Source: Escherichia coli (GTDB taxonomy: Bacteria > Pseudomonadota > Gammaproteobacteria > Enterobacterales > Enterobacteriaceae). Taken from it: a DNA stretch of 64,000 nucleotides. Positions within the stretch are counted from its first letter, which is position 1. Each line of letters opens with the position of its first letter. The stretch is taken from the NCBI RefSeq assembly GCF_002854065.1, contig NZ_CP024147.1. One strand, 5' to 3'. A program made the translations under genes and the position numbers. Below the pieces are notes generated by a model. The model was given only the letters and a program-made list of their open reading frames with translations. It was not told the DNA's origin and ran no database searches. This document shows, piece by piece, positions 6,146 through 62,279 of this stretch.

Positions 6146-7308
6146 TACGCCTCCAGAGAGTTTCCAAGACTGTCATAACGACCGACAATTTCCGGTTCGC
6201 CACGCTGAATACCCGATACCAACACCACATCACTGCGGGTAACAAAAATCTGCGTACGAAAACAGAACACTACGGCACTACTCACCGGAAACTCGCCTGC
6301 TAACGGCAGGTAATAGTCGATACTGCTGTCATCCACAGTTTTGAGATTTGTTTCAGTAATCTTTTGATTTTCTGGCGTAAACACCAGCGCATGTTGCGCA
6401 TGACCACGACGGTAATAACCGCCGCCGTAGCAGTAGCTGTCGCCACGGAAATGGTGGGAAATTTCACTTAACCAAAGCATCGCGATACGTTCAGGCTGAT
6501 CGCCCTGCTGGTTTGCCGGAATTGTGCCCGTCAGCGCATGACCGGGTTCGGCATGAGTCACACCGTATTGCGCCAGCAATGGCAACGAAGTGCAGCTGGT
6601 CGCAGAAGGTGCGTTCAGTTGCTCAATCGCAATACCAGATTTCGCCAGTTGATCCCGTGCCTGTATCAGCGTGTGAAGATTCGGTGTCGGCAAAACTTTC
6701 CCGGCAGCCTCATCCCAAAGCAGGCAAGGGAAATGGGTTAGTCCGGCTAAATGCAGCCCCGGCAGTTTCTTAATTTCAGCAACCACCTCGTGCAGCGAAT
6801 GCTGTACAAAACCGCTCTCCTGCCCCGGATAAAGAAAATCATCGTCGCTATAAACTTTGAGCAGCACAGACTGGATTCGCCCGGCTTTCACCGCCGCCGC
6901 AGAAACTTCCCGCGCTTTGTCGAGAGTAAACACGGTGATGACGTCGGTGCCCTGTTCAACGGCGTCAGCAACCTGATGACAAGGGATTTGTACCAGATGC
7001 CCCTGATGCGCCACCGGCAAACCAGCGCGGCGCATGACTCGCGCCTCTTTGTAATCCACCGCCACAATGCCGCTGTAGCCCAACGCCAGCAGTTTTTCCG
7101 CCAGCCATGGGTTACGACCGAATTGTTTGGTCATCAGATACAGTTCAATGCCGTAAAGCCGCGCCGTCTCAATCTGCCGCTTACCGTTTTCCAGTATCTG
7201 ATCCACGTCGATCACCCAGCTGTCCGGGGCGATCTTGCCCTGCTGCCACAGACTTAAAGCGGCGGAAATCAGCGCCGGGTTCTGGCGTTTCAATGCTTCT
7301 ACAAACAT
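6145..7308 (-). CDS. yhfX: YhfX, alanine-racemase-fold (fold type III PLP) protein, 387 aa
   Basis: ORF 387 aa; synteny; 4-nt ATGA-type overlap with yhfW start. Confidence 0.85.
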
Positions 7309-7391
7309 CTTGTTGCCTCGTTTCTGTTCCTTGAATTAAATATTCATTTTTTTGAATATTTAGATTGTGCGACGTGGATTTGCCGAATGCC

Positions 7392-7754
7392 TCAGATACT
7401 TTCGTTAGCAGCCATCCATAATCCATAAAGGTTGGCCAGCAAATAGCCTTCTTCACACGGGTTAACTTCCAGTGCGAATTCCTTCAACAACACCTGATGC
7501 AATTGCACAACGGCTTGCCAGTGGCTGGATTGCGCCAGCTCTGCCAGCAACTCGTTATCCAGTGGCTCAATTTCTTCACCACGGCGACTGCGCATCAGTG
7601 CACTCGCCATATGTGTCATCGCCATCGTTCCTTGCTCACTGCGCACCGGCAGATGGCACTCTGTTTCCAGTACCTTGACGACCTGCATCATGCCTTTGCA
7701 GATGTCCTTATCAATAACGCCTGCATCGCAAAGCAGGTTGAGTCTGGTTTCCAT
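7392..7754 (-). CDS. yhfY: YhfY (120 aa); start taken at internal Met METRLNL
   Basis: K-12 length 120 aa; ORF-track start at 7796 would overlap yhfZ. Confidence 0.75.
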   Translation of the reverse strand: METRLNLLCDAGVIDKDICKGMMQVVKVLETECHLPVRSEQGTMAMTHMASALMRSRRGEEIEPLDNELLAELAQSSHWQAVVQLHQVLLKEFALEVNPCEEGYLLANLYGLWMAANESI

Positions 7755-7770
7755 ATCAGATGCCTTTCGT

Positions 7771-8676
7771 TTAATAACTCGGTTCCTGTTCCCCACTCAC
7801 CACCCGTTGTTGATGGGCGAGCAGGGCGTGTTTATCTACAACGGCACGCAGCAGTTGTTGCATTGGGTAATCATCGACTCGCGTCAGGACCACGGCTTCG
7901 GTGGCCTGTAAAAATCGCGGATCGTCTGTGAGCGGCGTCGCCTCTAATCCCAGCATGGTCAGTTCGTTTTCCGCCACCACGTTCCAGATAACCGCATCAA
8001 CATCGCCTTTAACAATGCGTTGTAAACTCTCGTGATAAGAGAGATCGACTCGTTCCACATCACTACCGCCAAAAAAGACATCAGTCATGATTTTCTGATC
8101 CGCCGAACGGTTATCCAGCCCCACGCGCTTCACGTTTGCGGACTCGCCTTTACGGCAAATCAACTGGTGCTCGCCAACGTAGGTGTGCGGCCCCAACTCC
8201 AGCGCGAGGCATAACCCTTTTTGCGTGAGATAACTTTCCGCCGCCAGTCGGGAAACCACCGCCATGTCATACACGCCGTTAAGTAAACACTCCACGCGAA
8301 TATCCGCGCCGCGCATATGCGCATAGTAAAAAGGAATGCCATCAAACTGGGCTTTCAATCCGCTCGCTAAACCTTCGTACAAGCGGGTATAGGGCAAAGG
8401 CATCGCACATACCACGTTGTTGATATCCACATGACTCAGCAATGCTTTGTTATCCATCTCGACCAGATAACTGCCATTGCGCCCACGGCGTTCAATCCGT
8501 ATCGCTCCGCTTGATTCCAGCGTTTTCAACGCGGCCTGCGTCAGGCCAACGGATGAACGGCATTCAGTGGCCAGTTCATCTATAGTTTTCAATCGGTTAC
8601 CGCACTTTTCACCCAACAAATAACGGGCCAGCGTCGTGATGACGACGCCTTCTTTTTTGATAAACGTTCGACGCAT
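7771..8676 (-). CDS. yhfZ: YhfZ, putative regulator with N-terminal HTH (301 aa)
   Basis: ORF 301 aa; synteny. Confidence 0.85.
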   Translation of the reverse strand: MRRTFIKKEGVVITTLARYLLGEKCGNRLKTIDELATECRSSVGLTQAALKTLESSGAIRIERRGRNGSYLVEMDNKALLSHVDINNVVCAMPLPYTRLYEGLASGLKAQFDGIPFYYAHMRGADIRVECLLNGVYDMAVVSRLAAESYLTQKGLCLALELGPHTYVGEHQLICRKGESANVKRVGLDNRSADQKIMTDVFFGGSDVERVDLSYHESLQRIVKGDVDAVIWNVVAENELTMLGLEATPLTDDPRFLQATEAVVLTRVDDYPMQQLLRAVVDKHALLAHQQRVVSGEQEPSY

Positions 8677-30715: not shown

Positions 30716-32784
<2,069 letters not shown>

Positions 32785-33011
32785 TGTTTGTACTCCCAAA
32801 GGTTCGCAACAATTTGTAAGCGTGTATTCTTAAAAAAGCTCACGTTCGTCACCAGCTAAATCTGGTATGAATTTCAGCCTAAATTGTTACAAAGCATATT
32901 AAACAGCAGCTTAAGTATACAATTTATTCGGCGAAACATTATTGATTCTGTTGATATGATCACGTTATACCCAATGTGCGCATTATCAAACAGACAAAGG
33001 GAATCAACGAG

Positions 33012-33584: not shown

Positions 33585-35906
33585 ATGATGAATGATTCGT
33601 TCTGCCGCATTATTGCGGGTGAAATTCAGGCGCGCCCGGAACAGGTTGACGCTGCCGTTCGCCTGCTTGACGAAGGGAATACCGTGCCGTTTATCGCACG
33701 TTATCGTAAGGAAATCACCGGCGGTCTGGATGACACGCAGCTGCGTAATCTGGAAACGCGTCTGAGCTATCTGCGCGAGCTGGAAGAGAGACGTCAGGCG
33801 ATCCTCAAGTCCATTTCCGAGCAAGGCAAACTCACCGATGATCTGGCGAATGCCATCAACGCCACCCTAAGCAAAACCGAACTCGAAGACCTCTACCTGC
33901 CCTACAAACCTAAACGCCGCACCCGCGGGCAAATCGCCATTGAAGCAGGGCTTGAGCCGTTGGCTAACCTGCTGTGGAGCGATCCGTCACACACGCCAGA
34001 AGTCGCCGCTGCGCAATATATTGATGCCGATAAAGGCGTGGCAGATACCAAAGCCGCGCTGGACGGCGCGCGCTATATCCTGATGGAACGGTTTGCCGAA
34101 GATGCCGCGCTGCTGGCGAAAGTGCGTGATTATCTGTGGAAGAACGCGCATTTGGTTTCTACGGTGGTGAGCGGTAAAGAAGAGGAAGGGGCGAAATTCC
34201 GCGACTATTTCGATCATCACGAACCGTTGTCCACGGTGCCTTCTCACCGCGCGCTGGCGATGTTCCGTGGGCGTAACGAAGGCGTACTTCAGCTTTCGCT
34301 GAATGCCGATCCACAGTTCGATGAGCCGCCGAAAGAGAGCTATTGCGAGCAAATCATCATGGATCACCTTGGCCTGCGCCTGAACAATGCCCCGGCGGAT
34401 AGCTGGCGCAAAGGCGTGGTGAGCTGGACGTGGCGCATCAAGGTGCTGATGCATCTGGAAACCGAACTGATGGGCACCGTGCGCGAACGTGCGGAAGATG
34501 AAGCAATCAACGTCTTTGCCCGTAACCTGCACGATCTGCTGATGGCGGCCCCTGCCGGACTGCGTGCAACGATGGGCCTCGATCCGGGTCTGCGTACTGG
34601 GGTAAAAGTGGCGGTGGTCGATGCCACTGGCAAACTGGTAGCGACCGATACCATTTACCCGCACACCGGACAAGCCGCAAAAGCAGCGATGACTGTTGCT
34701 GCGCTGTGTGAAAAGCATAACGTTGAACTGGTGGCGATCGGCAACGGTACAGCTTCCCGCGAAACCGAACGTTTCTATCTCGACGTGCAGAAGCAGTTCC
34801 CGAAAGTGACCGCACAGAAAGTGATCGTCAGCGAAGCTGGCGCGTCGGTTTACTCGGCTTCCGAGCTGGCAGCGCAGGAGTTCCCGGATCTCGACGTTTC
34901 GCTGCGTGGCGCGGTTTCTATCGCCCGCCGTTTGCAGGATCCGCTGGCGGAGCTGGTGAAAATCGATCCGAAATCTATCGGCGTAGGTCAGTATCAGCAT
35001 GACGTTAGCCAGACGCAACTGGCCCGCAAACTGGACGCAGTAGTAGAAGACTGCGTAAACGCCGTTGGCGTCGATCTCAACACTGCTTCTGTTCCGCTGT
35101 TAACCCGCGTGGCGGGCCTGACGCGCATGATGGCGCAAAACATCGTAGCCTGGCGCGATGAGAACGGCCAGTTCCAGAACCGTCAGCAACTGTTAAAAGT
35201 GAGCCGTCTGGGGCCGAAAGCCTTCGAGCAGTGCGCGGGCTTCCTGCGCATTAACCACGGTGATAACCCGCTGGACGCCTCTACCGTTCACCCGGAAGCC
35301 TATCCGGTGGTGGAACGCATTCTGGCAGCAACACAGCAGGCACTGAAAGATCTGATGGGTAACAGCAGCGAACTGCGTAACCTGAAAGCGTCTGACTTTA
35401 CTGATGAAAAATTCGGTGTGCCGACAGTAACTGACATCATCAAAGAGCTGGAAAAACCGGGTCGCGATCCGCGTCCGGAATTTAAAACCGCTCAGTTTGC
35501 CGATGGCGTCGAGACAATGAACGACCTGCAACCGGGTATGATCCTCGAAGGCGCTGTCACCAACGTCACCAACTTTGGCGCGTTTGTCGATATCGGCGTG
35601 CATCAGGACGGCCTGGTTCACATCTCTTCATTGTCGAACAAGTTTGTGGAAGATCCGCATACCGTGGTGAAAGCGGGCGACATTGTGAAGGTGAAAGTGC
35701 TGGAAGTGGATCTTCAGCGTAAACGTATCGCCCTGACTATGCGTCTGGACGAGCAGCCTGGCGAAACCAACGCTCGTCGCGGCGGCGGTAACGATCGCCC
35801 GCAAAACAACCGCCCGGCAGCCAAACCACGCGGTCGTGAAGCGCAGCCTGCCGGTAACAGCGCGATGATGGACGCGCTGGCGGCAGCAATGGGCAAAAAA
35901 CGTTAA
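33585..35906 (+). CDS. yhgF: YhgF, Tex-like RNA-binding protein with C-terminal S1 domain (773 aa)
   Basis: ORF 773 aa recognised. Confidence 0.93.
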
Positions 35907-35985
35907 ACGCCCGGACTGGCCCCTAAACCTGCGCGATAAGGCGTTCACGCCGCATCTGGCAACGAACGCCTTGCCTGACATAAAA

Positions 35986-36018
35986 GTGCCGGAGAATATC
36001 TCCGGCATATTTATTCCA
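35986..36018. terminator. Hairpin GCCGGAGAATATCTCCGGC then T-rich, downstream of yhgF; adjacent REP-like unit at about 35935..35960
   Basis: Inverted repeat plus ATATTTATT. Confidence 0.6.
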
Positions 36019-36140
36019 CAGCCAAACTCACAATATATTTCGTTAATATTTATCACTTCATTAACAACTGAAACCTTAATTAAACATTAGCCAGTCCTGG
36101 TAATTCGCTATTCGAATTATATTTTCGCTGCGATATAACC

Positions 36141-36154
36141 TTGAGCCACATCAA
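36141..36154. promoter_or_regulatory. Putative FNR box TTGAG-CCAC-ATCAA upstream of feoA
   Basis: Matches TTGAT-N4-ATCAA at 9 of 10 positions; feo is known to be FNR-activated. Confidence 0.5.
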
Positions 36155-36207
36155 CATTGAGTCAGATTATTATTCAAACCAACATTCGCACACATTTTAA
36201 GTATTGC

Positions 36208-36234
36208 TGATAGAAACCATTCTCATTATCATTG
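36208..36234. promoter_or_regulatory. Putative Fur box (GATAGAAACCATTCTCATTATCATT) upstream of feoA
   Basis: Resembles GATAATGATAATCATTATC; feoABC is Fur-repressed. Confidence 0.5.
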
Positions 36235-36343
36235 TACTGTTGATTATTTAATCTCTCCTTCGTTGGCAAATCATCTGGTCTCATGTCGCTGTCAAACGCC
36301 CCATGAGGTAGTTATCCAGTTAATGAGAAACAAGTAGGCACCT

Positions 36344-36571
36344 ATGCAATACACTCCAGATACTGCGTGGAAAATCACTGGCTTTTCCCGTGAAATCAGC
36401 CCGGCATATCGCCAAAAACTGCTTTCTCTTGGCATGTTACCTGGCTCCTCTTTTAATGTGGTGCGCGTCGCTCCACTCGGCGACCCCATTCATATCGAAA
36501 CCCGTCGTGTGAGCCTGGTATTACGCAAAAAAGATCTGGCCTTATTAGAAGTGGAAGCGGTTTCCTGTTAA
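36344..36571 (+). CDS. feoA: Ferrous iron transport protein A (75 aa)
   Basis: ORF 75 aa recognised. Confidence 0.95.
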
Positions 36572-36587
36572 TACGGTGATAACAACA

Positions 36588-38909
36588 ATGAAAAAATTAA
36601 CCATAGGCTTAATTGGTAATCCAAATTCTGGCAAGACAACCTTATTTAACCAGCTCACTGGCGCACGTCAGCGTGTAGGTAACTGGGCTGGCGTTACCGT
36701 CGAACGTAAAGAAGGGCAATTCTCCACCACCGATCATCAGGTCACGCTGGTGGACCTGCCCGGCACCTATTCTCTGACCACCATCTCATCGCAGACCTCG
36801 CTCGATGAGCAAATCGCCTGTCACTACATTTTGAGTGGCGACGCCGACCTGCTGATTAACGTGGTGGATGCGTCTAACCTTGAGCGTAACCTGTACCTGA
36901 CGCTACAACTGCTGGAACTCGGCATTCCCTGCATCGTGGCACTGAACATGCTCGACATTGCCGAGAAGCAAAATATTCGTATTGAAATTGATGCTCTGTC
37001 GGCGCGTCTTGGCTGCCCGGTGATCCCGCTGGTTTCAACCCGTGGTCGCGGTATTGAAGCGCTCAAGCTGGCGATTGATCGCTATAAAGCTAACGAGAAT
37101 GTGGAACTGGTGCATTACGCACAGCCGCTGCTCAACGAAGCAGATTCACTGGCAAAAGTGATGCCTTCCGACATCCCGCTGAAACAACGTCGCTGGCTGG
37201 GCCTGCAAATGCTGGAAGGCGATATCTACAGCCGCGCCTACGCCGGTGAAGCGTCGCAGCATCTTGATGCCGCCCTCGCCCGTCTGCGTAATGAGATGGA
37301 CGATCCGGCGCTGCACATTGCCGATGCGCGTTACCAGTGCATTGCTGCCATCTGTGATGTGGTAAGCAACACCCTGACGGCAGAACCCAGCCGTTTCACC
37401 ACTGCGGTAGATAAAATCGTGCTCAACCGTTTCCTCGGTCTGCCGATTTTCCTCTTTGTGATGTACCTGATGTTCCTGCTGGCTATCAACATCGGCGGGG
37501 CGTTACAGCCGCTGTTTGACGTCGGCTCCGTGGCGCTATTTGTGCATGGTATTCAATGGATTGGCTACACGCTCCACTTCCCGGACTGGCTGACTATCTT
37601 CCTCGCCCAGGGCTTGGGTGGCGGTATTAACACCGTGCTGCCACTGGTGCCGCAGATCGGCATGATGTACCTGTTCCTCTCCTTCCTTGAGGACTCCGGC
37701 TATATGGCGCGTGCAGCGTTTGTGATGGACCGCCTGATGCAGGCGCTGGGCTTGCCGGGGAAATCCTTTGTGCCGCTGATCGTCGGTTTCGGTTGTAACG
37801 TACCGTCGGTAATGGGTGCACGTACACTTGATGCACCGCGTGAACGTCTGATGACCATCATGATGGCACCGTTTATGTCCTGCGGCGCGCGTCTGGCTAT
37901 CTTCGCAGTATTCGCGGCTGCCTTCTTCGGGCAGAACGGTGCGCTGGCGGTCTTCTCGCTGTATATGCTCGGTATCGTGATGGCGGTGCTGACTGGCCTG
38001 ATGCTCAAGTACACCATCATGCGCGGTGAAGCGACGCCGTTTGTCATGGAGCTGCCGGTCTACCATGTACCACACGTTAAAAGCCTGATTATCCAGACCT
38101 GGCAGCGTCTGAAAGGCTTCGTTCTGCGTGCTGGTAAAGTGATTATCATCGTCAGCATTTTCCTGAGCGCTTTCAACAGCTTCTCGTTGAGCGGGAAAAT
38201 CGTCGATAACATCAACGACTCGGCGCTGGCTTCCGTCAGCCGGGTGATCACCCCGGTCTTCAAGCCGATTGGCGTGCATGAAGATAACTGGCAGGCAACA
38301 GTTGGCCTGTTTACGGGTGCAATGGCGAAAGAAGTGGTGGTGGGTACGCTCAACACCCTCTACACCGCAGAAAATATTCAGGACGAAGAGTTCAATCCGG
38401 CGGAATTTAACCTCGGTGAAGAGTTGTTCAGCGCGGTAGATGAAACCTGGCAGAGCCTGAAGGACACCTTCAGCCTTAGCGTACTGATGAACCCCATTGA
38501 AGCTAGCAAAGGCGACGGCGAAATGGGTACCGGGGCGATGGGCGTGATGGATCAGAAATTCGGTAGCGCAGCTGCCGCATACAGCTACCTGATTTTCGTC
38601 CTGCTGTATGTACCGTGCATCTCGGTGATGGGAGCCATCGCCCGTGAATCAAGCCGTGGCTGGATGGGCTTCTCCATCCTGTGGGGGCTGAATATCGCTT
38701 ACTCACTGGCAACATTGTTCTATCAGATCGCCAGCTACAGTCAGCACCCAACTTACAGCCTGGTGTGCATTCTGGCGGTTATCCTGTTTAACATCGTGGT
38801 TATCGGTCTGCTGCGCCGCGCGCGTAGCCGGGTGGATATCGAACTGCTGGCAACCCGTAAGTCGGTAAGCAGTTGCTGCGCAGCCAGCACCACCGGTGAT
38901 TGCCATTAA
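36588..38909 (+). CDS. feoB: Ferrous iron transporter FeoB, N-terminal GTPase plus permease (773 aa)
   Basis: Start [21 protein letters not shown] (G1 motif). Confidence 0.97.
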
Positions 38910-39145
38910 TGGCTTCACTTATTCAGGTGCGTGATTTGCTGGCGTTACGGGGCCGTATGGAAGCGGCCCAGATAAGCCAGACATTGAACACTCCACAGCC
39001 AATGATTAACGCCATGCTGCAACAACTGGAAAGTATGGGCAAAGCCGTGCGGATTCAGGAAGAACCTGACGGCTGCCTCTCCGGCAGTTGTAAAAGCTGC
39101 CCGGAAGGAAAAGCCTGTCTGCGCGAGTGGTGGGCGCTGCGTTAA
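38909..39145 (+). CDS. feoC: FeoC (YhgG), winged-helix protein with Cys cluster (78 aa)
   Basis: [11 protein letters not shown]...[15 protein letters not shown]; start overlaps feoB stop. Confidence 0.9.
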
Positions 39146-44099: not shown

Positions 44100-46184
44100 C
44101 TACTTCTTCTTCGCTGCAGCTCTGCGCCGTCTGTCCAAATCCTTCAGCAACTTGTTCACGCCATCATCGGCAAACATCGTCTCAAGCGTTGCGGAAAGCT
44201 TGCGTCGCCAGTTTTTATACTGGTAACTGGTGCCAGGAATATTCACCGGTTCGGCCATATCCAGCCAGTCTTCCGGCTGTAGTCCTAACAGAGCACTGTT
44301 ACTGTCGGCAATGTAGCGCTGCAAACCACGGTTCAGCGTCGGCGTCATCGACATCAACGATGCCTTATGCCCGGCACGTTTTGGCAGACAACCATATTTA
44401 TGCAGTGCATCCAGCAGCCCTTGCTTCGCCAGTTCGCGATCCTGATACAGACCGCGCAGTACCACTTCATCCGGATACAGCCCCAGGGTTTTGCCCAGCG
44501 TTAGATCCCCGCTCTCCCAGTAGCCGCGTAGCGTAGGCAGGTCATGTGTCGCCGCAACCGCCATCGACTGCTCCGGATACGCTTTCGGTGCACGGAACGT
44601 CTTCTCGTGGTCGTTTTCGAAATAGAGCACTTTGTAGGAGTACACACCGCTGCTGCGCAGCTTACCGACAATCTCTACCGGTACGGTACCGAGATCTTCA
44701 CCAATCACCATACAGCGATGACGTTTACTTTCGAGTGCCAGAATCGAGAGCAGATCATCCACCGGATAGTGAACATACGCGCCCTGATCTGCCGTCTCGC
44801 CATACGGTATCCACCACAAACGCAGCATCGACATCACATGGTCAATTCGTAATGCGCCGCAGTTTTGCATATTGGCACGCAACAGCTCGATAAACGGTTC
44901 ATAGGCACGCGCGGTGATGATATGCGGGTCCATTGGCGGCAATCCCCAGTTCTGCCCCAACGGGCCGAGGATATCCGGCGGCGCGCCAACCGACGCTTTC
45001 AGGCAATACAGTTCACGGTCGCACCAGGTTTCCGCCCCACCTTCCGCTACGCCAACCGCCAGATCACGATACAAGCCAATCGGCATTTCATAGCCCTGGC
45101 TTATCTCCCAGCAGGCGGCAAACTGGCTGTAAGCCAGCCACTGCAGCCAGAGATAAAAATCAACGTCATCGCGATGTTCTTCGCAGAACTGACGCACTTC
45201 TGGTGAATCCACGTTCTGATACATCTCTGGCCATGCAGGCCAGCCCCAGCGCATTTCGTCCTCTTTCACTTGCTGGGCATGTAGCGCATCAAAGGCTGCC
45301 TGCCAGAACAGGCTGTCGCCTTGATCTGCAACAAACTGGCGAAACGCGGCCATCTGCTCATCATCACGTTGCGCGAAACCTTTCCACGCCATTCGTAATG
45401 CTGTCATTTTTAGGGCGGTAACCGTGGAGTAATCGACCCAGTCGGCATCCCGCGCCTGTTGCAGCGTCTGTTGCGTGGTCGGCAACTGCCACCAGGCCTG
45501 AGCCTCTTCGCTAAGATGGAAATCTTCGACGGCGTTAACGTCGATATAAATCACATTCAGCCAACGGCGAGAAGACGGGCTGTATGGGCTGGCGCTCTCC
45601 GGATTTGCCGGATAGAGCGCATGAATCGGGTTCAGGCCGATGAACGACCCGCCACGTTTTGCCACATCCACCAGCATCGCTTTGAGATCGCCAAAATCCC
45701 CAATACCCCAGTTTTTTTCCGATCGCAGCGTATAAAGCTGGACGCAGGCACCCCACAGCTTTTGTTTATTCAGCAACGCCTGCGGTTCGTAACAGCGTTT
45801 CGGGGCGACAATCACCCTGCAATGCGCGCGCTGGTCTTCCTGGGTAAGCGTCAGCGTGTGATAACCTTCCGGCAGCTTCGTCGGTAGATTGAACGCTTTG
45901 CCCCCAGTTACATGGCCTTTGTACTGCGTTCCTTCTTCGGTGGTCAGCAGCCAGCTATATTCGCCGCTGCCCTCCACCACCATCGGCATTTTTTTGCCGC
46001 TGGTATAAACCATGACATTCGGGACTGGCGTTACCGCCACTTTCGTGGCGGTACGTTGATGCATCGCGTCAAGCAAACGCCGTTTGGTTTCGGCGCTAAT
46101 CGACTGCGGTTTACCGTGGGCATTGATGTAATTGGGGCTAATCCCCGCCGCCAGCGCGGCATTATCCAGACGTTTGCTTTCCAT
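44100..46184 (-). CDS. malQ: 4-alpha-glucanotransferase (amylomaltase), 694 aa
   Basis: ORF 694 aa recognised. Confidence 0.97.
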   Translation of the reverse strand: MESKRLDNAALAAGISPNYINAHGKPQSISAETKRRLLDAMHQRTATKVAVTPVPNVMVYTSGKKMPMVVEGSGEYSWLLTTEEGTQYKGHVTGGKAFNLPTKLPEGYHTLTLTQEDQRAHCRVIVAPKRCYEPQALLNKQKLWGACVQLYTLRSEKNWGIGDFGDLKAMLVDVAKRGGSFIGLNPIHALYPANPESASPYSPSSRRWLNVIYIDVNAVEDFHLSEEAQAWWQLPTTQQTLQQARDADWVDYSTVTALKMTALRMAWKGFAQRDDEQMAAFRQFVADQGDSLFWQAAFDALHAQQVKEDEMRWGWPAWPEMYQNVDSPEVRQFCEEHRDDVDFYLWLQWLAYSQFAACWEISQGYEMPIGLYRDLAVGVAEGGAETWCDRELYCLKASVGAPPDILGPLGQNWGLPPMDPHIITARAYEPFIELLRANMQNCGALRIDHVMSMLRLWWIPYGETADQGAYVHYPVDDLLSILALESKRHRCMVIGEDLGTVPVEIVGKLRSSGVYSYKVLYFENDHEKTFRAPKAYPEQSMAVAATHDLPTLRGYWESGDLTLGKTLGLYPDEVVLRGLYQDRELAKQGLLDALHKYGCLPKRAGHKASLMSMTPTLNRGLQRYIADSNSALLGLQPEDWLDMAEPVNIPGTSYQYKNWRRKLSATLETMFADDGVNKLLKDLDRRRRAAAKKK

Positions 46185-60684: not shown

Positions 60685-61287
60685 TTACCGCAAAGCCCAC
60701 GCCATCATACCCAACGTAACAAAACTCAGGCACGTTCCCCACTCACTCCACTTCCGTATCTGGCTTCTATTTTTGCTACGCCACTGGCAATAATATCCCA
60801 ACGCAAAACCAAGCTGTGCGCTTATTGGACCGATAAAATCCGTCCACGGCTGAGGCCAAAATGGCGAAAAATTCAGGGGTAGCCAGACAACAAGCAGAAA
60901 GAAATTGCGGATACTTTCCAGCAACGCAATTTTCGCTGGCGCGATGTAAAAAATGATATTCCAGAGGATCAACCATAAATAGACCGGTGCGAATACCAAC
61001 CAACAATGGAGCCTGCTTTTCAATTCAGATTGAGTTCTACGAGTAAATTGCCAACCAACGCAACACATTACACAGAAGAAAAGCGCATATTCAGCCGATA
61101 ACCAAAGTTGTAATTGCAGAAGTGAAATACGCCTGATCATGAGCGGGATTGAGAACAGCATTTCCCCCAGAAAACTCAGCGTGATAATACAAGCAGCCAG
61201 CGCAACCACCATCGGCCACACCAACAACGGCACAATAACAAAGCCGAGAAATAACGGATAAATATAAAGTCTGATTATATTCATCAT
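60685..61287 (-). CDS. Uncharacterised multi-pass membrane protein (200 aa), paralogous to the N-terminal domain of the 505-aa protein upstream
   Basis: ORF 200 aa, mostly hydrophobic; start ATG overlaps upstream stop (TAATG); shared segments with 62305..63822 N-terminus. Confidence 0.75.
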   Translation of the reverse strand: MMNIIRLYIYPLFLGFVIVPLLVWPMVVALAACIITLSFLGEMLFSIPLMIRRISLLQLQLWLSAEYALFFCVMCCVGWQFTRRTQSELKSRLHCWLVFAPVYLWLILWNIIFYIAPAKIALLESIRNFFLLVVWLPLNFSPFWPQPWTDFIGPISAQLGFALGYYCQWRSKNRSQIRKWSEWGTCLSFVTLGMMAWALR

Positions 61288-62279
61288 TATTGTCCTGATG
61301 ATTCGGGGGATGCTTCATACAGCAGCACATACCCCACATCCTCTACCAACTGTTGCCCCTGCTGACTTATAAACCAGTCAACAAATTTCTGCGTTTCCGG
61401 CGTGGGATTTTCACGCGTCACCATATAGGCATCCACAATGTATGGATAAGTGCCGTTGCGGATATTTTCCTCGGTAGGCGCAACGCCATTTATAGCCAAA
61501 AGTTTAATCTGCTTGCGCATTTTGAGCATATTGTCATTCATACGAGTGACGTAATAGTGGAAGGTGTACCCAATGGAAGATGGCGTGTTTTGATAGTCGG
61601 CAACTTCAGTAATTAAACCGCCCATAAGATCAATCACAGTAGATTTTTTAGCTGGCAGCATTGGGGTGTCTTGCATAACCAATCCCTTCATAATCGTTTG
61701 GCTTCCAGAATCTTCAGGGCGCTGCCAGACTTTTATATGTTCGTCACTACCACCTACTTTATTCCAGCGGCTAGTTTTGCTGCTAAAAATATCTTTAACC
61801 TGGTGCTCAGAGAGAGAATTTACCGGGTTATTAATATCAACGATAAAGACAAAGGCTTCGCGGGCGAAAGCGGTATATTTCAGTTTAACACCCGCTTCTT
61901 CTGCACGTTTTTTCTGTCCTTCCGACGGTTGTGCAACAAAAATAACCGTCGCGGAACCTTTAATCAGACTATCGTAGGCTTCAGCTGTTCGGGTTTGCTG
62001 CAAACCATACGCCTGCCAGGCCAGCGAGGTTCGATCCTTATCTTTTGGCTCGGGTACTAATTTATAATACGCGGAGGCATACAGCGGGTATAAGGCTGTA
62101 GCGCCGTACACTCTCGGCCATCTTGACCAATCATCGCTGTAACGTAATGCAGGTTGCCCCCGCAGAGACGTCAGTCCATGGCTCTCTTCTTCCCTGACGC
62201 TGTTATAGTACCCTTCCCGGTCGACACATCCCGCCAGTAACGCCGTGCCTAATAGTAAAACACCGGTGAATTTATTCAT
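61287..62279 (-). CDS. Uncharacterised lipoprotein with PstS-like (PBP_like_2) phosphate-binding-protein-family domain, about 330 aa; start at MNKFTGVLLLGTALLAGC
   Basis: Lipobox LLAGC; motifs QRPEDSGSQT, IGYTFHYY, APTEENIRNG resemble PstS DGSGTSF / GAIGYVEY / SPTEENF; ORF-track start at 62342 would overlap the upstream gene. Confidence 0.8.
   Translation of the reverse strand: MNKFTGVLLLGTALLAGCVDREGYYNSVREEESHGLTSLRGQPALRYSDDWSRWPRVYGATALYPLYASAYYKLVPEPKDKDRTSLAWQAYGLQQTRTAEAYDSLIKGSATVIFVAQPSEGQKKRAEEAGVKLKYTAFAREAFVFIVDINNPVNSLSEHQVKDIFSSKTSRWNKVGGSDEHIKVWQRPEDSGSQTIMKGLVMQDTPMLPAKKSTVIDLMGGLITEVADYQNTPSSIGYTFHYYVTRMNDNMLKMRKQIKLLAINGVAPTEENIRNGTYPYIVDAYMVTRENPTPETQKFVDWFISQQGQQLVEDVGYVLLYEASPESSGQ

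Follow-up and report, generated by a model that had tools for sequence, protein, structure and literature searches.

The feoABC control region of an O157:H7-type Escherichia coli chromosome segment probably combines oxygen and iron signals through FNR, ArcA, OmpR and Fur

The window, by which we mean the whole 64,000-nucleotide stretch of DNA that was analyzed, is a chromosome segment of the E. coli O157:H7/O55:H7 type that carries ompR-greB-yhgF-feoABC. Gene coordinates were taken from the annotation of a matching O157:H7 record that is collinear with the window base for base. In that record, frlD (window 7088-7873) is a pseudogene with an internal stop. The genes around the regulated operon (feoABC, 36344..39145) are as follows.

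32065-32784, minus strand: ompR
Between ompR and yhgF: greB
33585-35906: yhgF, with its stop at 35906
36344-36571, plus strand: feoA, first gene of the regulated operon, ATG at 36344
36588-38909, plus strand: feoB, same operon
38909-39145, plus strand: feoC, same operon
After feoC: rpnA and bioH, also annotated in the collinear record

The yhgF-feoA spacer measures 437 bp, a length exceeded among the about 44 spacers of the first 50 kb only by malP-malT (611 bp), and is long yet not extraordinary. GC content is 0.29-0.38 across 36000-36300 compared to 0.5-0.65 in the flanks. A preliminary description of this DNA, made from the sequence alone, had noted an unusually long, AT-rich leader of about 440 bp. 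While the AT-richness and the length are borne out, the segment is an intergenic spacer rather than a leader. It consists of about 100 bp of repetitive extragenic palindromic (REP) sequence and yhgF terminator, about 230 bp of upstream regulatory DNA and a 5' UTR of about 106 nt, and contains the following features.

35935..35967, plus strand: REP-type repeat, GATAAGGCGTTCACGCCGCATCTGGCA, just past the yhgF stop codon
35986..36008, plus strand: terminator-like hairpin with a 10-pair stem (6 GC pairs) and a T-rich tail, ATTTATT
36047..36067, minus strand: ArcA direct-repeat site, overlapping an OmpR/RstA-like motif, TTATCAcTTCATTAACA, at 36050-36066
36141..36154, no strand assigned: FNR site TTGAG-CCAC-ATCAA, TTGAGCCACATCAA, centered at about -90.5 relative to the transcription start
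About 36156..36174, no strand assigned: weaker upstream Fur cluster, immediately past the FNR box on its 3' side
36204..36209, plus strand: putative -35 element TTGCTG, 17 bp upstream of TATCAT, deduced from the literature start
36206..36239, no strand assigned: main Fur operator, overlapping Fur sites arrayed across the -35, spacer, -10 and +1
36227..36232, plus strand: -10 element TATCAT, a 5/6 match to TATAAT that fits a start at 36238
36238..36343, plus strand: transcription start and 5' UTR of about 106 nt, with a ribosome-binding site (RBS), AAGTAGG, at 36331-36337

The REP-type repeat is outside the feoA control logic, and the hairpin is likely the yhgF terminator. When 35800-36700 was scanned against Rfam by E value, only sub-threshold REP-like matches were returned (35901-36023), including a weak match to the REP-derived naRNA4 at 35930-35967 (E=0.048), and the control region and leader were empty. 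A structured leader or riboswitch was rejected, the fold of 36238-36360 not being significant (z=+0.27).

We determined how far this spacer is shared within the species. A match is found in 5,425 of 5,426 complete E. coli genomes, with 100% identity to the window in O157:H7 and O55:H7 strains; identity of at least 99% is reached by the 111-bp control region in 4,060 of the 5,426 genomes and by the whole spacer in 399. The feoA promoter (feoAp) of K-12 is the same locus, with Fur clusters, ArcA site and transcription start that all correspond one-to-one. In the alignment with K-12 MG1655, the spacer is identical to the window over 36130-36235. The O157/O55 sequence differs from K-12 by the loss of 19 bp in the REP region (near 35922-35940), a substitution in the ArcA/OmpR site and AC for GT at 36236-36237, with a few substitutions in the upstream part of the spacer. 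Since the control-region sequence is identical, experimental data from K-12 can be transferred to the window. The K-12 coordinates for FNR, Fur and ArcA sites given below refer to an older release, are shifted by 1,978 bp and were verified by sequence.

The FNR consensus match that had been noted upstream of feoA lies exactly at 36141-36154, where TTGAGCCACATCAA agrees with TTGAT-N4-ATCAA at 9 of 10 positions. Searching for this consensus with one mismatch is unconvincing by itself, with 6 matches in the window versus 2.3 expected. We scanned the window with a symmetrised position weight matrix (PWM) built from 62 ChIP-seq-bound sites (Myers et al. 2013, Table S6), from which feoA was left out. 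The feoA box scored 15.5 bits and ranked first in the 64 kb, which compares with a median of 15.6 bits for the 62 training sites. Matches as good occurred 0.30 times per window in dinucleotide shuffles, and when the 437-bp spacer was shuffled, 0.4% of the shuffled sequences had one (P=0.004). The prediction also agrees with the mapped site, as the same 14-mer is listed under an FNR ChIP-seq peak upstream of K-12 feoA (PMC3688515, Table S6; K-12 3537982, PatSer 14.6 bits, ln p -13.13, threshold -10.75), with no nucleoid-protein overlap listed, and it sits 203 bp before the feoA ATG both in K-12 and in the window. That study reports no FNR-dependent change in feo expression with ample iron, which its authors explain by Fur masking. 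The second-best PWM match in the window, TTGATCTGCAACAA at 45321-45334 (14.4 bits), falls within the malQ coding sequence and is probably due to chance.

A Fur box had been suspected in the AT-rich element at 36208-36234 (TGATAGAAACCATTCTCATTATCATTG). The best 19-mer matches to the Fur consensus GATAATGATAATCATTATC are 13/19 at 36212 and 36218, and 12/19 at 36206. A single 13/19 match has P=0.21 by chance in DNA this AT-rich, and since the score of a single box is thus uninformative, we replaced it with a statistic for arrays of registers 6 bp apart. The three registers at 36206, 36212 and 36218 sum to 38 (12+13+13), the highest array score in the window (P=0.007 relative to composition-matched shuffles of the AT-rich 344 bp). 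In K-12, a Fur ChIP-exo peak detected with ample iron only (P104, K-12 v2 3538047-3538080; Fur pan-regulon, PMC10164565) converts to window 36206-36239 and encloses the element. Using information theory, Chen et al. 2007 (PMC2189734) found Fur sites of 10.9 and 13.4 bits, above their 10-bit genome-scan cutoff, which center on window 36218 and 36224. A third site of 10.5 bits (K-12 v2 3538006, window 36165), covering one of the two Fur boxes of Kammler et al., falls in the upstream cluster next to the FNR box, which was absent from the preliminary description. With 412 sites genome-wide at that cutoff, we estimate that about 0.04 would be expected in 437 bp, compared to the three observed. These findings show that the Fur element is genuine and that it is built from several weak, overlapping sites instead of a single strong one. 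Second in the window by the 6-bp array statistic is the Fur-like sequence TCTGATTATATTCATCATTATTGTC at 61261-61300, at the junction of two minus-strand open reading frames encoding a 200-residue membrane protein and a 351-residue protein, where AT-rich coding DNA may have produced it by chance. The upstream Fur cluster also contains a degenerate FNR-like repeat, TTGAGTCAGATTAT (36157-36170, 8.4 bits), 16 bp from the main FNR box.

The position of these sites relative to the promoter depends on a start at 36238 (K-12 v2 3538079), which is second-hand, being obtained by arithmetic on the ArcA numbering in Table S6 of PMC3798270. No start-site entry for feoA was found in the Kim 2012 supplements as covered here. 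In the O157 strain, the start would lie at about 36238; AC replaces GT there at -2/-1 (36236-36237), a change that could shift the start nucleotide. A simple promoter scan found no promoter because the -35 has just three of six matches. Read from this second-hand start, TTGCTG-17-TATCAT has 8/12 sigma-70 matches, below the scan threshold, and is strongly conserved. Counted from the literature start, -90.5 is the center of the FNR box and the Fur ChIP-exo footprint spans -33 to +2, so that the array at 36206-36239 overlaps the -35, the -10 and +1.

A further site lies upstream at 36047-36067, beyond the region first described (36130-36240). In Park et al. 2013 (PMC3798270), the ArcA site TTGTTAATGAAATGATAAATA scores 17.6 bits, is covered by a ChIP peak and is numbered "-191 to -171" (K-12 v2 3537888-3537908; window position verified by sequence), and feoABC is down 3.7-fold in an arcA mutant. 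Purified OmpR gave a gel shift only with the fragment carrying the motif now at 36050-36066 (PMC7315122). Conservation of this ArcA/OmpR site across related loci is moderate. O157/O55 differ from K-12 at one position in it, an A-to-G change at 36056, K-12 TTGTTAATGAAaTGATAAATA becoming ...AAgTG... in O157/O55; in context, the O157/O55 lineage has ...ATGAAgTGATAA... and K-12 ...ATGAAaTGATAA... A second OmpR/RstA-like motif, CCAACATTCGCACACA (36179-36194), was discounted, as the fragment containing it gave no OmpR shift (PMC7315122).

We then looked at the control region across Enterobacteriaceae. Scanning for FeoA with one genome per species gave 80 related loci, from genera including Escherichia, Salmonella, Citrobacter, Klebsiella, Kluyvera, Raoultella, Enterobacter, Kosakonia, Cedecea and others. 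The orthologous FNR box is the best FNR-PWM match within 450 bp before feoA in 78 of the 80 loci, in the shared form TTG(A/C)(G/T)-N4-(A/G)TCAA, with the central four bases free to vary (CCAC, CCAT, GAAT, TCAT, CAAG and others). The exceptions are two Cedecea loci (L070 and L080), where a consensus FNR box is 234-244 bp from the Fur/-10 core. These Cedecea boxes are near-perfect (TTGATCTAAATCAA or TTGATTTAAATCAA, 21 bits) and lie upstream of the conserved core, which may represent a different arrangement or an FNR site that belongs to another promoter. When 79 distinct sequences were aligned, conservation was highest in the FNR half-sites, in the block 36204-36233 that holds the -35, Fur array and -10, and in the RBS. 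The -35 consensus in the family is TTGATG, with TTG kept in at least 95% of the 79 sequences. The 56 gapless sequences carry, per position, 1.8 bits of information in the FNR half-sites and 1.0 in N4; the DNA separating FNR box and core has 0.96, the -35 1.71, the -10 1.84, the Fur array 1.57 and the sequence past the start 0.84. Conserved half-sites around a widely varying N4, as seen in these 56 orthologs, are what selection on an FNR operator predicts. The upstream Fur cluster keeps only its GATTAT core across genera, and the 5' UTR, apart from the RBS, is weakly conserved and variable in length.

The distance between the FNR box and the core AAACCATTCTCATTATCATT is nearly constant, with 73 bp in 56 sequences, 72 bp in 22 and 63 bp in one; spacing is thus 72-73 bp in 78 of 81 sequences, and the 63-bp variant is shorter by exactly 10 bp, one helical turn. 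The DNA in between is about 59% identical on average, the core lies anywhere from 57 to 259 bp from the ATG, and the flanks of the FNR-promoter module have gained or lost tens of bases. In the Enterobacter group (Enterobacter, Leclercia, Lelliottia, Huaxiibacter and Silvania; loci L040-L042, L048, L056, L060, L063, L069, L072, L073, L076-L079 and L081), the module is unchanged but about 70 bp nearer the feoA ATG, with a much shorter leader, while in Klebsiella indica (L071) an equally unchanged module is about 130 bp further away. A spacing that stays fixed while the sequence drifts suggests a link between FNR and the promoter that depends on distance or helical phase. From these sequence comparisons, we consider the odds about even that feoAp relies on a phase-locked, long-range contact between FNR and RNA polymerase at about -91. 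If so, feoAp could be a natural model for distal class I activation by FNR and for its override by a promoter-proximal Fur array. We found no statement of a fixed-spacing rule in the literature covered, a scope outside which the key 1993 and 2017 papers fall. This family-wide comparative evidence for a fixed FNR-promoter spacing is the only new element of the present follow-up, and a modest addition.

Taken together, these findings lead us to propose, with a probability of about 0.9, that the feoABC control region integrates oxygen and iron signals by means of a weak sigma-70 promoter that is activated by FNR, ArcA and OmpR and repressed through a Fur array. The promoter (TTGCTG, TATCAT, start at about 36238) would depend on activators. 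Under anaerobic conditions, a [4Fe-4S]-FNR dimer would bind TTGAG-N4-ATCAA at 36141-54, around -90.5, and activate at a distance from the correct face of the helix in a class I-like manner, presumably via the C-terminal domain of the RNA polymerase alpha subunit, with phosphorylated ArcA and OmpR at 36047-67 (near -181) contributing extra activation. In iron-replete cells, Fe2+-Fur dimers would fill the overlapping array from -33 to +2 (36206-39) and exclude RNA polymerase, and the weaker Fur cluster beside the FNR box (about 36156-74) may assist repression. Site occupancy in this scheme would be that of the cited in vivo work in K-12, carried over to the O157 sequence.

That FNR would make a class I-type contact is suggested by its position and spacing. 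On synthetic promoters, FNR activates from -92.5. Measured from a start that is second-hand, the feoA box at -90.5 occupies an uncommon activating position, 1-2 bp away from this value. The likeness to class I FNR/CRP-type distal activation lies in an upstream activator site at a fixed distance compatible with helical phase, and the differences in its position (about -90.5 versus -92.5) and in an alpha C-terminal domain contact that is presumed for feoAp. The regulation expected from the preliminary description, i.e., anaerobic induction and iron repression of feoABC, matches published reports, since a feoA-lacZ fusion shows both Fur repression and anaerobic induction (PMC4676285). Since the promoter has hardly any activity in air, Fur repression is visible chiefly under anaerobic conditions (PMC4676285).

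Other readings of these sites were considered, among which the most serious, although we regard it as unlikely, is that FNR acts chiefly as an anti-repressor, countering Fur or H-NS at AT-rich DNA rather than directly recruiting RNA polymerase. ArcA and FNR reportedly antagonize Fur repression in part (Beauchene and colleagues, PNAS, 2017). A Fur cluster adjoins the FNR box (PMC2189734), H-NS is flagged in the yhgF-feoA spacer in the SELEX study of Shimada et al., and effects of FNR and ArcA are visible only in interplay with Fur (PMC4676285, PMC3688515). However, the 72-73 bp spacing, with a lone variant one helical turn shorter, is better explained by a contact with RNA polymerase on one face of the helix than by displacement alone, the upstream Fur cluster shows poor conservation, and the FNR peak is equally high in the wild type and in an hns stpA mutant, with no nucleoid-protein overlap (PMC3688515). 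Anti-repression and direct activation by FNR are compatible with each other. The genuine promoter could instead be the one predicted by RNA polymerase SELEX, where the entry of Shimada et al. for the yhgF-feoA spacer is TTATCA-15-TTTAAT, 20 bp downstream; with the -35 at 36226-31, the -10 at 36247-52 and transcription starting at about 36259, the -35 and the DNA upstream of it would lie under the Fur array and FNR would be near -111. We find this improbable, since TTATCA-15-TTTAAT is a motif pick inside a SELEX peak rather than a mapped start and has a poor 15-bp spacer, TTTAAT is conserved far less than TATCAT, the TTG at 36204-06 that is at least 95% conserved would be left with no role, and Park et al. 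place the start at 36238.

Very low odds are given to the possibility that the FNR box belongs to another promoter, of class II and unmapped, starting at about 36189. Most natural FNR-activated promoters are class II, with FNR most commonly activating from -41.5, which is where the box would then be. Yet 36177-36182 reads AACCAA, which is unusable as a -10, this stretch is among the least conserved, and a start at about 36189 is not in use in the literature examined; lacking both a -10 and conservation, this arrangement was rejected. Least credible of all is that chance produced both matches in this AT-rich intergenic sequence and that control is indirect. Although a single 13/19 Fur match is expected at this composition and one-mismatch FNR matches exceed expectation across the window, chance is ruled out by in vivo ChIP occupancy in K-12 and by cross-genus conservation of half-sites but not of the spacer between them, in addition to the PWM and array statistics.

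The FNR and Fur sites of E. coli feo were reportedly described by Kammler, Schoen and Hantke in 1993. The feoA sites are thus real and already known, with later confirmation on a genome-wide scale, and their value here is that of a positive control, two real operators having been located to within a few bases by reading raw sequence. The operon itself provides ferrous iron where oxygen is low, for example in the gut, and plays a part in colonization and virulence. Like the Fur-repressed promoters of fhuF, fepA and cirA, feoAp has overlapping Fur sites spaced by 6 bp over the -35 and -10, the usual occlusion design, but its sites are weak (10.5-13.4 bits), while strong clusters of the fhuF, fepA and cirA type have a site above 17 bits. 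In Yersinia pestis, feoABC similarly has a Fur site over a promoter and predicted Fnr and ArcA motifs. It differs in that its authors report two promoters and no DNA similarity to the E. coli region, mutations in fnr, arcA and rstAB have no effect, and iron repression is seen only under low oxygen.

A last observation concerns ompR. Another K-12 Fur ChIP-exo peak, present in both iron conditions (PMC10164565), converts to 32917-32950 in the ompR-greB spacer when a 19-bp indel is allowed for, and contains ATTATTGATTCTGTTGATATGATCA. This Fur peak is of note because OmpR itself activates feoABC.
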